Shown here piece by piece: positions 1-24,530 of a DNA stretch of 64,000 bases. Made by a program: the position numbers and the translations under genes. Position 1 is the first letter of the stretch. Each line of letters starts with the position of its first letter. Origin of the DNA: Mustelus asterias. Taxonomy: Eukaryota. Where the stretch lies: positions 39,618,001 to 39,682,000 of the forward strand of contig NC_135821.1 of NCBI RefSeq assembly GCF_964213995.1. Reading direction: 5' to 3'. Below the pieces are notes generated by a model, which saw only the letters and a list, made by a program, of their open reading frames with translations, was not told the DNA's origin and ran no database searches.

Positions 1-1201
1 GACACACGGAACAGCCATGGGGACCAAATTCGCACCTCAATATGCCAACATCTTCATGCACAGGTTCGAACAAGACTTCTTCACCGCACGGGACCTTCAA
101 CCGATGCTATACACTAGATACATCGATGACATTTTCTTCCTTTGGACTCATGGTGAACAATCACTGAAACAACTCTATGATGACATCAACAAGTTCCATC
201 CCGCCATCAGGCTCACCATAGACTACTCTCCGGAATCGGTTGCATTCTTGGACACACACATCTCCATTAAGGACGGTCACCTCAGCACCTCACTGTACCG
301 CAAGCCCACGGATAACCTCACGATGCTCCACTTCTCCAGCTTCCACCCGAAACACGTTAAAGAAGCCATCCCCTACGGACAAGCCCTCCGTATACACAGG
401 ATCTGCTCGGATGAGGAGGATCGCAACAGACACCTCCAGACGCTGAAAGATGCCCTCATAAGAACAGGATATGGCGCTAGACTCATTGATCAACAGTTCC
501 AACGCGCCACAGCGAAAAACCGCACCGACCTCCTCAGAAGACAAACACGGGACACAGTGGACAGAGTACCCTTCGTTGTCCAGTACTTCCCCGGAGCGGA
601 GAAGCTACGGCATCTCCTCCGGAGCCTTCAACATGTCATTGATGAAGACGAACATCTCGCCAAGGCCATCCCCACACCCCCACTTCTTGCCTTCAAACAA
701 CCGCACAACCTCAAACAGACCATTGTCCGCAGCAAACTACCCAGCCTTCAGGAGAACAGTGACCATGACACCACACAACCCTGCCACAGCAACCTCTGCA
801 AGACGTGCCGGATCATCGACACAGATGCCATCATCTCACGTGAGAACACCATCCACCAGGTACACGGTACATACTCTTGCAATTCGGCCAACGTTGTCTA
901 CCTGATACGCTGCAAGAAAGGATGTCCCGAGGCATGGTACATTGGGGAAACTATGCAGACGCTGCGACAACGGATGAATGAACACCGCTCGACAATCACC
1001 AGGCAAGACTGTTCTCTTCCTGTTGGGGAGCACTTCAGCGGTCACGGGCATTCGGCCTCTGATATTCGGGTAAGCGTTCTCCAAGGCGGCCTTCGCGACA
1101 CACGACAGCGCAGAATCGCTGAGCAGAAACTGATAGCCAAGTTCCGCACACACGAGGACGGCCTCAACCGGGATATTGGGTTCATGTCACACTATTTGTA
1201 A
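1..1201 (+). CDS. Penelope-like retroelement ORF (C-terminal RT + Cys-rich linker + GIY-YIG endonuclease), 5' part outside window
   Basis: Uninterrupted frame from window start: GTAMGTKFAPQYANIFM, RYIDDIFFLW (RT catalytic motif), LYRKPTD, HPKH..IPYGQALRIHRICS thumb, PCHSNLCKTC linker, NVVYLIRC..YIGET..LRQRMNEHR (GIY-YIG) and GLN near the end. The Cys-rich linker suggests the Neptune-type group. Confidence 0.95.
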   Translation, partial: THGTAMGTKFAPQYANIFMHRFEQDFFTARDLQPMLYTRYIDDIFFLWTHGEQSLKQLYDDINKFHPAIRLTIDYSPESVAFLDTHISIKDGHLSTSLYRKPTDNLTMLHFSSFHPKHVKEAIPYGQALRIHRICSDEEDRNRHLQTLKDALIRTGYGARLIDQQFQRATAKNRTDLLRRQTRDTVDRVPFVVQYFPGAEKLRHLLRSLQHVIDEDEHLAKAIPTPPLLAFKQPHNLKQTIVRSKLPSLQENSDHDTTQPCHSNLCKTCRIIDTDAIISRENTIHQVHGTYSCNSANVVYLIRCKKGCPEAWYIGETMQTLRQRMNEHRSTITRQDCSLPVGEHFSGHGHSASDIRVSVLQGGLRDTRQRRIAEQKLIAKFRTHEDGLNRDIGFMSHYL

Positions 1202-1405
1202 CTCCCACAGTTGCGTGGACCTGCAGAGTTTCACTGGCTGTCTTGTCTGGAGACAATACACATCTTTTTAGCCTGTCTTGATGCTCTCTCCACTCACATT
1301 GTTTTGTTTCTTAAAGACTTGATTAGTTGTAAGTATTCGCATTCCAACCATTATTCATGTAAATTGAGTCTGTGTCTTTATAAGCTCTGTTTGTGAACAG
1401 AATTC

Positions 1406-1450
1406 CCACTCACCTGAAGAAGGGGCTAAGAGCTCCGAAAGCTTGTGTGG
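1406..1450 (+). ncRNA. Minimal type-I hammerhead ribozyme in Penelope 3' end
   Basis: CAC-CTGAAGA(1414-1420)-A-GGGGC-TAAGA-GCTCC-GAAA(1437-1440)-GC-TT-GTG. Contains the CUGANGA and GAAA boxes, 5-bp stem II, CAC/GTG stem I, and palindromic AAGCTT in place of stem III. Confidence 0.8.
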
Positions 1451-1511
1451 CTTTTGCTACCAAATAAACCTGTTGGACTTTAACCTGGTGTTGTTAAACT
1501 TCTTACTGTGT

Positions 1512-4102: not shown

Positions 4103-4519
<417 letters not shown>

Positions 4520-4804: not shown

Positions 4805-4998
4805 GTGATTAAAGCAGTTGAAGAAGGGTTCCGTCTCTCTGCTCCCATGAACTGCCCTTCCAGGCTCCACCAGCTCATGCTGGAGTGTTGGCAGAAGGAT
4901 CGCAACGACCGGCCCAAATTTGCACAGATCCTGAGCATCCTTAGCAAGATGGGTTGCAATCCTGACAGCCTGAAAGCCATCCCCAACGGCTGCCACAG
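4805..4998 (+). CDS. EPHA10: Eph receptor exon (kinase subdomain XI and end of kinase)
   Basis: ctctgcAG|GTG..CACAG|GTAAAT, 194 nt, phase 0/2. Encodes [64 protein letters not shown]; GFRL and SILSKM resemble EphA10. Confidence 0.9.
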
Positions 4999-5829: not shown

Positions 5830-5970
5830 CTGGGGTCAATTCTGGCCTCGGGTCACTGTCTGTGTGGAGTTTGCACATTCTCCCCGTGATTGCGTGGGTT
5901 TCCTCCGGGTGTTCTGGTTTCCTCACACACTCCAAAGATGTGCGGATTAGGTGGATTGGTCATGCTAAAT
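5830..5970 (+). mobile_element. HE1/V-SINE 5' half, split by a CR1 insertion (3' half at 8868-9000)
   Basis: V-core ends CATGCTAAAT at 5970 and resumes TAAATTGCCCCTT at 8868. Confidence 0.85.
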
Positions 5971-8867
5971 GAGGACCTGACTGGGCCTGGAGGTCTGGAG
6001 TGCATCTGCTTCAATGCGAGGAGTGTAACGGGTAAAACAGACGAACTTAGGGCCTTAATGCTTGTGCGGAATTTGGATGTGGTTGCGGTGACGGAAACTT
6101 GGTTAAAAGAAGGACAGGACTGGCAGCTGAATATTCCGGGGTATAAGTGTTTTAGGCGAGACAGAGGAGGGGCTAAAAAAGGTGGGGGAGTAGCGATATT
6201 AGTTAAGGAGCATATTACCGCGGTGCAGAGGGTAGACAACTTAGAGGGGTCATGTACTGAGTCGCTGTGGGTGGAACTCAGAAACAGGAAGGGTGCAGTC
6301 ACTATGCTGGGGGTGTACTACAGACCACCCAACAGCCCACGGGAAGTGGAGGAAAGGATATGTCAGGAGATTCTGGATAGGTGCAGAAAACATAGGGTTG
6401 TTGTAGTGGGGGACTTTAATTTCCCTGGCACAGACTGGAAAGTGCTTAGAGCTGGGGGACCGGACGGGGAGGAATTTGTAAAATGCGTACTGGAAGGTTC
6501 TTTGGAACAGTATGTAGATAGCCCGACTAGAGAGGGGGCTATACTGGACCTAGTTCTGGGAAATGAGCCCGGTCAGGTCGTCAAAGTTTCGGTAGGGGAA
6601 CATGTGGCAAATAGTGACCACAACTCTGTTAACTTTAGGATAGTGATGGACAAGGATGAGTGCTGTCCTACGGGCAGGGTGCTAAATTGGGGGAAGGCTG
6701 ACTATAGCCGGATTAGGCAGGAATTGGTGGATGTTGATTGGGAGAGGATGTTCGAGGGTAAGTCCGCGTCTGGCATGTGGGAGTCTTTTAAGGAACTATT
6801 GATAAGGCTGCAGGATAGGCATGTGCCTGTAAAAAGGAAAGATAGGAAAGGTAGGATTCGAGAGCCGTGGATAACCAGGGAAATTGAGGATCTGATTAAA
6901 ATGAAAAGGGAGGCGTACGTTAAGTCCAGGCAACTGAAAACAGATGGAGCTCTGGAGGAATACAGAGAGAGTAGGAAAGATCTCAAACGGGGAGTTAGAA
7001 GGGCAAAAAGAGGTCACGAGATGTTCTTGGCAGGCAGGATTAAGGAGAATCCTAAGGCATTCTATTCATACGTTAGGAACAAAAGAGTTGTCAGGGAGAA
7101 AATCGGACCTCTCAGGGACAAAGGAGGGGAATTATGCTTAGAACCCAAGGGAATAGGGGAGATCCTAAATGAATACTTTGCATCGGTATTCACGAAGGAG
7201 AGGGGCATGTTAACCGGGAGTGTCTCGGAGGGAGGTGTTGACCCGTTAGAGAAAATCTCCATTACAAGAGAGGAAGTGTTAGGTCTTTTAGGGAACATTA
7301 AAACTGACAAAGCCCCAGGGCCTGATGGCATCTATCCTCGACTGCTCAGGGAGACAAGAGGTGAAATTGCTGGGCCTCTGACGGAAATCTTTGTCGCTTC
7401 TTTGGACACGGGTGAGGTCCCTGAGGATTGGAGGATAGCGAATGTGGTCCCGTTGTTTAAGAAGGGTAGCAGGGATAACCCAGGAAATTATAGGCCGGTG
7501 AGCTTGACGTCCGTGGTAGGGAAGTTGTTGGAGAGGATTCTTAGAGACAGGATGTATGTGCATTTAGAACGGAACAATCTCATTAGTGACAGACAACATG
7601 GTTTTGTAAGAGGGAGGTCGTGCCTTACAAATTTGGTGGAGTTTTTTGAGGAAGTGACAAAAACGGTTGATGAAGGAAGGGCCGTGGATGTCGTCTATAT
7701 GGATTTCAGTAAGGCATTTGACAAAGTCCCACATGGCAGGTTGGTTAAGAAGGTTAAGGCTCATGGGATACAAGGAGAAGTGGCTAGATGGGTGGAGAAC
7801 TGGCTTGGCCATAGGAGACAGAGGGTAGTGGTCGAAGGGTCTTTTTCCGGCTGGAGGTCTGTGACCAGTGGTGTTCCGCAGGGCTCTGTACTGGGACCTC
7901 TGCTATTTGTGATATATATATAAATGATTTGGAAGAAGGTGTAACTGGTGTAATCAGCAAGTTTGCGGATGACACGAAGATGGCTGGAATTGCGGATAGC
8001 GAAGAGCATTGTCGGGCAATACAGCAGGATATAGATAGGCTGGAAAATTGGGCGGAGAGGTGGCAGATGGAATTTAATCCGGATAAATGCGAAGTGATGC
8101 ATTTTGGAAGAAATAATGTAGGGAGGAGTTATACAATAAATGGCAGAGTCATCAGGAGTATAGAAACACAGAGGGACCTAGGTGTGCAAGTCCACAAATC
8201 CTTGAAGGTGGCAACACAGGTGGAGAAGGTGGTGAAGAAGGCATATGGTATGCTTGCCTTTATAGGACGGGGTATTGAGTATAAAAGCTGGAGTCTGATG
8301 ATGCAGCTGTATAGAACGCTGGTTAGGCCACATTTGGAGTACTGCGTCCAGTTCTGGTCGCCGCACTACCAGAAGGACGTGGAGGCATTGGAGAGAGTGC
8401 AGAGAAGGTTTACCAGGATGTTGCCTGGTATGGAGGGTCTTAGCTATGAGGAGAGATTGGGTAGACTGGGGTTGTTCTCCTTGGAAAGACGGAGAATGAG
8501 GGGAGATCTAATAGAGGTATACAAGATTATGAAGGGTATAGATAGGGTGAACAGTGGGAAGCTTTTTCCCTGGTCGGAGGTGACGATCACGAGGGGTCAC
8601 GGGCTCAAGCTGAGAGGGGCGAAGTATAACTCAGACATCAGAGGGACGTTTTTTACACAGAGGGTGGTGGGGGCCTGGAATGCGCTGCCAAGTAGGGTGG
8701 TGGAGGCAGGCACGCTGACATCGTTTAAGACTTACCTGGATAGTCACATGAGCAGCCTGGGAATGGAGGGATACAAACGATTGGTCTAGTTGGACCAAGG
8801 AGCGGCACAGGCTTGGAGGGCCGAAGGGCCTGTTTCCTGTGCTGTACTGTTCTTTGTTCTTTGTTCT
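5971..8867 (+). mobile_element. 5'-truncated young CR1 LINE with essentially complete ORF2 (APE + RT), one frameshift
   Basis: CFNARS..VTETWL..GDFN..SDHN (APE); NYRPVSLTS, QHGF, DFSKAFD, GVPQGSVLGP, FADD (RT). Frameshift in (TA)n at ~7912-7922, 3' (TTCTTTG)n tail, TAAAT duplication at 5966-5970 and 8868-8872. Confidence 0.97.
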
Positions 8868-14897: not shown

Positions 14898-15237
14898 TGG
14901 TAGGTAATTGCCGTTGAGTGATCTGTATCTATATACCTTGTTATTTTTGTTCAAAATTTGGGACATTTTATCTGATAAAGCACTGGAAAAGCAGATGCAC
15001 GATATTTTTGCATCGTGAGATGTAAAAGTGGAAAAGCAAACTTTTAGTGTCATTTTCCAAATCGGAAACCTCCAGATTGCCCAATCAGAAACCAGATTCT
15101 CCAGTCGCTGGCCGAATATGTGACAGCCTCGAGTGAAAAGGAAGGGACACAGACGGCAGAAGATGTCCATTCAGGAACCATTCGAAAACACTTCGCTATT
15201 TGCAATATCAGTGACCTCCTCTCCCCTCTGTTTTCAG

Positions 15238-15408
15238 CAGCAGACCTCAGAACCTGCACATTCCCCTCATGGAGCAAAACTTCCCGGCATTCCCATGCTT
15301 TGACTCCGTGGGCGAGTGGTTGGACGCCATTGAGATGGGCAGATACAAGGACAACTTCACAGCTGCCGGATACTGCTACCTGGAATCGGTCGCAAGAATG
15401 ACAGTCCA
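15238..15408 (+). CDS. EPHA10: Eph receptor exon (linker + SAM N-terminal part); start could be 15238, 15241 or 15244
   Basis: Polypyrimidine tract + CAGCAGCAG acceptors, donor CA|GTAAGT, phase 2/2. Encodes (SS)RPQNLHIPLMEQNFPAFPCFDSVGEWLDAIEMGRYKDNFTAAGYCYLESVARMTVQ; this frame is not in the ORF track. Confidence 0.9.
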
Positions 15409-15430
15409 GTAAGTGATCTTTCTCTTAGAC

Positions 15431-21508: not shown

Positions 21509-21623
21509 GGACGTAATGAGCCTGGGGATTACATGTGTCGAACACCAGAAACAAATCCTGAGCAGCATTCAGACTCTACGAGCACAGGTTATACAAATGC
21601 ACGGACGCGGTGTTCAGGTTTGA
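21509..21623 (+). CDS. EPHA10: Eph receptor last coding exon (SAM C-terminal part + PDZ-binding motif)
   Basis: ttccttccgcAG|G GAC.., phase 2. Encodes DVMSLGITCVEHQKQILSSIQTLRAQVIQMHGRGVQV*; the C-terminal GVQV matches EphA10 as I recall it. Confidence 0.9.
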
Positions 21624-24340: not shown

Positions 24341-24530
24341 GTCTCACAGCACCAGATTAAAGTCCAACAGGTTAATTTGGAATCACGAGCTTTCAGACGC
24401 TGTTCATTCATCAGGTGAAGGAGCAGCGCTCCGAAAGCTCATGATTCCAAATAAACCTGCTGGACTTTAACCTGGTGTTGTGAGACTTCTTACTATGCTT
24501 ATCCCAGTCCAACGCCAGCATCGCCACTTC
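24341..24530. mobile_element. Non-coding Penelope terminal repeat in inverted (fold-back) arrangement with hammerhead core
   Basis: 24341-24411 is the reverse complement of ~24414-24486; the right arm matches the Penelope 3' end at 1435-1510; minus-strand CAC-CTGATGA..GAAA-GC-TC-GTG at 24384-24417. Confidence 0.85.

Follow-up and report, generated by a model that had tools for sequence, protein, structure and literature searches.

A minimal hammerhead motif carried by a young Penelope-like element within an EPHA10-type gene intron of the shark Mustelus asterias

Metazoan Penelope-like elements (PLEs) carry minimal hammerhead motifs, described by Cervera and De la Pena (2014, PMC4209133) as type I motifs that lack stem III and have an extra base between positions 9 and 10.1, a G10.1-C11.1 pair, palindromic positions 15.2-16.2 and a short stem I. 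They lie in the pseudo-LTR and form many covarying subfamilies, mostly as single motifs, and no shark was found among the hosts named there. The function of these minimal hammerheads has been called unclear (PMC8557442). The PAc/Poseidon element of Anolis carolinensis (Frangieh et al. 2024, PMC11167929) combines an RT-GIY-YIG ORF with a hammerhead near the repeat-ORF junction and has two classes of 3' end, about 35 nt apart, that differ by a tail. The Neptune and Nematis groups of C-terminal EN+ PLEs, as set out in PMC8557442, have a C-terminal GIY-YIG domain with a CCHH motif, a CX2-5CxxC linker and a DKG motif, and their insertions are 5'-truncated and inverted with a tail of 30-40 bp. The shark family described here shares each of these traits with the respective system.

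The motif lies in a 64,000-nt stretch of Mustelus asterias DNA (hereafter the window; NC_135821.1, positions 39,618,001 to 39,682,000 of the forward strand), which is part of the contig called C21 here in a 3.68-Gb assembly; negative positions lie upstream of the window. Like the amniote RECK and CTCL hammerheads (PMC6155905) and the HDV-like ribozyme of Cpeb3 (PMC10919898), it belongs to a class of self-cleaving motifs and lies in sense orientation in an intron. According to those sources, however, the RECK, CTCL and Cpeb3 ribozymes are single-locus, conserved and active as monomers, whereas the shark motif is a recent insertion without stem III or loop-loop contacts. Its multi-copy, young status would argue against a domesticated intronic ribozyme.

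Anatomy and abundance of the hammerhead motif

As judged from sequence, folding and alignment, positions 1406 to 1450 on the plus strand are a hammerhead motif of the known minimal type I kind, ordinary for its class. Stem I is formed by CAC (1411-1413) and GUG (1445-1447), with a possible extension (1406-1408/1448-1450). The CUGAAGA box (1414-1420) is followed by an extra A (1421), by stem II (GGGGCU, 1422-1427, and AGCUCC, 1431-1436) and by the GAAA box (1437-1440), then GC, and U16.1-U17 (1443-1444). The palindrome AAGCTT (1439-1444) stands in place of stem III, AGCU being the predicted dimer helix by comparison with PMC4209133, and the motif anatomy predicts a cut between 1444 and 1445. 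An AATAAA that is conserved across subfamilies (1463-1468, 18 nt after the cut) is a candidate poly(A) signal, and a GU-rich stretch lies downstream of it (1486-1495). The boxes, stems, AAGCTT and AATAAA listed by the first-pass annotation were thus all present on the plus strand where it had placed them. The motif agrees with the metazoan PLE class in having CUGANGA, GAAA and an NUH triplet in which H is not G, an extra base between 9 and 10.1 (A1421), palindromic positions 15.2-16.2 (AGCU) without a stem III, and a location in the pseudo-LTR. The G10.1-C11.1 pair (G1422-C1436) was invariant in all 28 rows of an alignment of variants, its G and C being fixed by the search pattern.

Predicted folding gave stem II a pairing probability above 0.9 in the monomer. 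That of stem I was 0.04-0.075 for the motif alone and 0.002-0.005 in a context of 260 nt, because AAAGCUU is predicted to pair with the downstream GGCUUUU instead; this competing hairpin, AAAGCUU/GGCUUUU(G) at 1438-1456 on the plus strand, hides the core in the predicted minimum-energy fold. Folding z-scores of the motif were not significant (-0.2 to -0.9), as expected since it needs a partner. A search with the Rfam hammerhead models, which had been proposed as a check, returned no hammerhead match to the motif even at E<=5 or 10; we do not count this against the motif because those models expect stem III.

Within the 64-kb window the two core boxes matched 11 times against 5.6 expected, which is weak evidence alone, and cores were counted genome-wide by sequence-pattern matching. 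An exact 37-mer had 1,859 matches and its reversed control none. Degenerate cores numbered 83,754 with U17 (control, 68), 61,007 with A or C17 (control, 77) and 1,384 with G17 (control, 48). Hammerheads are not known to cut with G at position 17, and 144,761 of the 146,145 cores, or 99%, avoid G there. The resulting figure of about 145,000 core motifs, roughly one per 25 kb, compares with about 4,000 in the coelacanth and about 9,000 in Xenopus as given in PMC4209133, where different descriptors were used. The axolotl, whose genome is much larger, has 126,247 reported type I motifs (PMC7229834), which are of the canonical retrozyme kind.

A further check that had been named was covariation of the two stems, and it was found among subfamilies in an alignment of 28 related rows, hand-picked from 58 distinct variants, with two identical rows dropped. 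Paired cells made up 98.7%, and five of the eight pairs changed on both sides (3/3 in stem I and 2/5 in stem II). None of 500 shuffles reached the covariation score, and controls in which the pairing was slid were only 24-56% paired. Given that the rows are related and hand-chosen, we read the covariation as support and not as a probability. The anatomy, the genome-wide counts and the covariation together bear out the assignment to the minimal type I hammerheads of Penelope-like elements. A second hammerhead family, with stem II GGGUC/GACUC and the palindrome ACGU replacing AGCU, had 3,678 matches; its palindrome (ACGT in DNA) was intact in 11 of 20 copies, CpG-decayed in eight and otherwise changed in one. 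Copies of this second family seem to begin just before the core, and they have a different 3' sequence with no AATAAA within the 66 nt examined.

The element and breakpoints at its predicted cut

The motif lies at the 3' end of a Penelope-like element whose ORF starts with an ATG at -1477 (C21:39616523) and codes for 892 aa without an internal stop. The RT-GIY-YIG frame, said to be free of stops in the window, is indeed open there (2-1201, plus strand) and continues upstream to that ATG. Its 3' part has the RT motif YIDD, a CX4CxxC linker (CHSNLCKTC, between RT and endonuclease) and a GIY-YIG endonuclease with CCHH; RVT_1 scored 38.5 bits and GIY-YIG 21.6 bits, just below the cut-off of 22.6. 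Penelope/Poseidon elements lack such a linker as they are described in PMC8557442, and by the linker and CCHH motif definitions of that paper alone the shark element is of the Neptune/Nematis type. The 3' non-coding end, or pseudo-LTR (1202-1510, plus strand), belongs to the short class of 3' end, without a tail of 31-38 nt. A 9-bp target-site duplication, TTATACAAC, flanks the insertion (left copy -1489 to -1481, right copy 1511-1519), and the target was an older CR1/L2-type LINE fragment on the minus strand (1511-2280, continuing upstream of the element). Four uninterrupted LINE copies among the examined loci show the target site once. Many insertions of the same family adjoin CR1-type coding sequence at their 3' flank, like the copy in the window.

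Most of 30 sister copies were 97-100% identical to the window copy over the shared stretch, and on sequence grounds the latter is a young copy with an intact ORF. The 3' ends of these 30 copies fell at 1504-1511 in 13, at about 1542-1544 or beyond in 14 and between these in three; as mapped, the two classes are the known tail signature. The long 3' end joins the ATG, with 244 exact junction matches genome-wide. Where the core precedes a tandem junction (7 of 20 loci), the predicted cut falls 97-99 nt before the next ATG. According to PMC11167929, the ORF of PAc instead includes both the cut, 26 nt into it, and the tail, whereas the long end of the shark family stops at the ATG. Tandem and inverted insertions and the tail of 30-40 bp were found at the level of the family; the window copy itself is single, not inverted and tail-less. 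Its start lies 3-5 nt upstream of the ATG and its end is of the short 3' class, so it has no upstream repeat, no inverted arm and only one ribozyme. The earlier description of an intact-looking element thus holds for the unbroken 892-aa ORF but not for the upstream repeat, which is absent. A head-to-tail triple tandem of a related subfamily, with a period of 2,991, was among the junction matches, on C4 (69472038, 69475029 and 69478020), and is a candidate source locus of that subfamily. A putative splice-donor-like site, CGG/GTAAGC (1067-1075, plus strand; CAG/GTAAGC in another subfamily), lies inside the endonuclease coding region. Its GTAAG is kept in nearly all aligned copies and could mark an element intron or a U1 site.

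If the ribozyme cuts the RNA of the element before it is copied, insertions might begin at the predicted cut. Genome-wide, 2,352 matches had a non-T base just before the first post-cut base. Among 30 inspected, 22 were true 5' breaks and eight kept the core, so that about 1,700 copies would start at the predicted cut, or about 2,300 after allowing for a chance T. At position -1 there were 914 matches, about half of them expected from a chance T after the cut. Position +1 had 5,012, mostly of a subfamily with a stem I strand shorter by 2 nt, and the estimate for those with a non-T base was about 450 (9/100 among the matches listed). At position -6, where two mismatches were required, 368 matches compared with about 1,200 expected at the rate of the cut. 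The peak at the cut is therefore roughly 3- to 7-fold above its neighbours. Cut-starting copies make up about 5% (about 5-7%) of an estimated 47,000 copies, an estimate that follows from 56 of 100 U17 matches listed being of the same type. In an unselected sample from Eph genes, 8 of 116 ends (5 insertions) fell at most one base from the cut, compared with 0.8 at each nearby position, and in two insertions both mirror arms started at the predicted cut. About half of the listed breaks at -6 were perfect fold-backs centred on the AAGCTT palindrome.

The breakpoint peak suggests that the ribozyme of this family can cut in vivo, perhaps in the element's own RNA, and that activity in the window copy should not be taken as zero by default. 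A structure-specific break at the edge of the competing hairpin, and not cleavage, could also give a peak of 5' breakpoints at this position, since in the window subfamily the edge of that hairpin's loop is also where the cut falls. For PAc, the authors of PMC11167929 found no RNA reads ending at the cut, whereas genomic copies of the shark family pile up there. A literature search turned up no account of PLE hammerheads in sharks and none of such a breakpoint peak; the supplements of PMC4209133 and 10.64898/2026.07.22.740005, which lay outside the search, may list sharks.

The host gene and the fate of its transcript

Matches to shark Eph proteins placed the exons of the host gene on the plus strand from C21:39,166,139 to position 21,623 of the window. 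The element lies in a GT-AG intron of 13,226 nt (13.2 kb) between an exon ending at -8974 and one starting at 4253, and these flanking exons confirm the intronic position and sense orientation proposed for the motif. The plus-strand exons that follow encode the pseudokinase C-lobe with LWAAPE (4253-4402), the end of the pseudokinase domain (4805-4998), the SAM domain region (15233-15411, approximate bounds by tblastn) and the end of the coding sequence (21509-21623). The region had been called kinase-coding, but the domain is a pseudokinase: the catalytic loop reads HKILAAHK, with HKI for HRD, and DFG has become AGF, while the beta-3 Lys (VAIK) is still present. EPHA10 is described as an Eph receptor without the catalytic Asp of HRD and DFG (PMC8454701), and the host gene lacks both. 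The nearest shark proteins are named EPHA7-like or EPHA7 in databases; the name EPHA10 is given there to proteins of amphibians, fish and turtles that share the degenerate motifs, and another locus, on C5 and at 76%, could be EPHA7. The name EPHA10 is thus reasonable for a host gene that its motifs mark as EPHA10-type. The intron after the 4805-4998 exon also holds a long CR1-type ORF2 piece in sense orientation (5890-8789; 677 aa, then 324 aa in another frame). About 2.7 kb past the host stop codon is a decayed inverted pair of element ends (24346-24530), with a sense AATAAA near 24450; the pair may be within the 3' UTR or just past it.

We are fairly confident that the hammerhead serves the element's own RNA and that the lone intronic copy is a passenger, removed together with the intron. 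When a transcript spans a tandem (repeat-ORF), the AGCU palindrome would let two motifs pair with each other, or one motif would be folded by the element's protein, and the motif so paired or folded would cleave just past CUU. No more than a few percent of the copied RNAs would have been cut, and reverse transcription would start about 60-100 nt downstream of the cut, which would account for both classes of 3' end. Within the host pre-mRNA, we predict that the monomer remains in the inactive hairpin and that the AATAAA is read through, which would lead to normal splicing of the 13.2-kb intron.

The first-pass annotation had proposed that the motif and its poly(A) signal could cleave or truncate the EPHA10 transcript. 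The motif likely does not cut the host message: its being a monomer, the poorly formed stem I, the many cores and the lack of depletion do not support the proposal, which we regard as unlikely rather than refuted. The motif is a lone monomer, with the nearest other sense core in the gene 48 kb upstream, and the 472 kb of host pre-mRNA examined holds at least 14 sense cores. The orientation of elements was compared in 1.38 Mb covering seven Eph genes, with gene orientation taken from exon matches only. The 146 element ends found there comprised 53 inverted pairs and 40 solos, and the solos of the seven genes were not depleted in sense orientation (23 sense and 17 antisense, n=40; 95% CI of the sense share 0.41-0.73). 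Those with an intact core and AATAAA were 14 sense and 10 antisense, and all intact cores 32 and 20. The numbers in this comparison are small, and on two occasions a pair of adjacent copies entered it as separate solos. It also lacks a positive control, since CR1 pieces from these genes were likewise unbiased (107 vs 100). A monomeric minimal hammerhead of Schistosoma did not cleave, and its dimers did so little (PMC4209133), while the anole hammerhead cut only with the element's protein (PMC11167929); this inactivity concerns motifs of other species, which would limit its weight against activity here. Slow intronic ribozymes had no effect on splicing (Fong 2009, as described in PMC10919898). 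A 2026 preprint on tandem retrozymes that sampled one chondrichthyan reports that introns are avoided in Xenopus (10.64898/2026.07.22.740005); this would speak against full tolerance, although it deals with tandem arrays, not with orientation.

Alternatively, the AATAAA might serve for polyadenylation within the intron, by itself or together with a cryptic acceptor at 1400, and give a minor EPHA10 mRNA that stops in mid-pseudokinase, an outcome that we consider unlikely. It lies in sense orientation, is conserved across subfamilies together with the GU-rich stretch and forms with it a canonical-looking signal, which would count against the copy being a passenger; a CAG with a modest pyrimidine tract stands at 1398-1400. 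Against this, the pre-mRNA examined contains 335 AATAAA, three of them in the 13.2-kb intron, and sense copies are not depleted in the Eph genes. The acceptor at 1400 ranks 128 of 770 AGs in the intron by a crude ad hoc score that places the real acceptor at 50. A nearby donor site can suppress a poly(A) signal through U1, and the donor-like site at 1070 could do so here. The idea of a conserved acceptor ahead of stem I did not hold up, ACAG being found 10-15 nt before the core in only 102 of 210 cores; none of seven copies without ACAG had a junction to the 1070 donor. Thirty of 30 exact-core copies extend at least 36 nt beyond the AATAAA, and no run of A8 was found within 45 nt after it in 180 genomic copies. 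The lack of poly(A) in these copies would be weak evidence against use of the signal, and it says little because the elements start reverse transcription internally (PMC11167929).

A second possibility is that the element's protein or another copy of the motif acts on the intronic hammerhead in trans, so that the EPHA10 pre-mRNA is cut and full-length mRNA is lowered where the element is expressed. The copies that begin exactly at the predicted cut, several-fold above its neighbours, would fit such activity, as would the cleavage of the anole motif with its protein (PMC11167929) and the tuning of Cpeb3 by an intronic ribozyme (PMC10919898). However, the motif is a lone monomer far from the next sense core, the cut lies 2.8 kb from the next acceptor and would have to be fast, and by our estimate only about 5-7% were cut even among copied RNAs. 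Moreover, the region that the anole protein needs according to PMC11167929, namely the tail and the downstream ORF start, is missing from the window copy. We consider such cleavage of the EPHA10 pre-mRNA quite improbable. The broader idea that the family's hammerhead is a protein-switched nuclease that cuts in vivo and could also be switched on in lone sense intronic copies is a long shot; if it were true, pre-mRNA cleavage in sharks would have a layer under transposon control, made up of tens of thousands of intronic motifs.

The 3' repeat might also act as a promoter for a short transcript that covers the EPHA10 exons downstream of it (C-lobe and SAM) and has the motif in its leader. The 3' pseudo-LTR of Penelope in D. 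virilis holds transcription sequences, and its authors raise an effect on downstream exons (PMC2377424). That element, though, belongs to a different clade and species, and we identified no splice donor in the part of the shark element that follows the motif; we regard this promoter activity as highly improbable.

Elsewhere in the same gene, in the intron after the ligand-binding exon, two identical intact sense cores lie 280 nt apart (C21:39355558 and C21:39355838), with a tail, an ATG and about 100 nt of ORF between them. This apparent natural tandem dimer is a better candidate than the window motif for cleavage of the EPHA10 pre-mRNA, and a candidate for the release of a 280-nt RNA.

Meaning for the element family and its host

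For EPHA10, the passenger reading means that the motif is probably immaterial, being ordinary cargo of a very abundant retrotransposon. The first orientation test suggests that sense copies are tolerated in introns, and it provides a baseline against which similar candidates in shark genes can be set. With its intact ORFs, its tandem arrays and the breakpoint peak, this young shark family is a good system for testing the function of minimal hammerheads.
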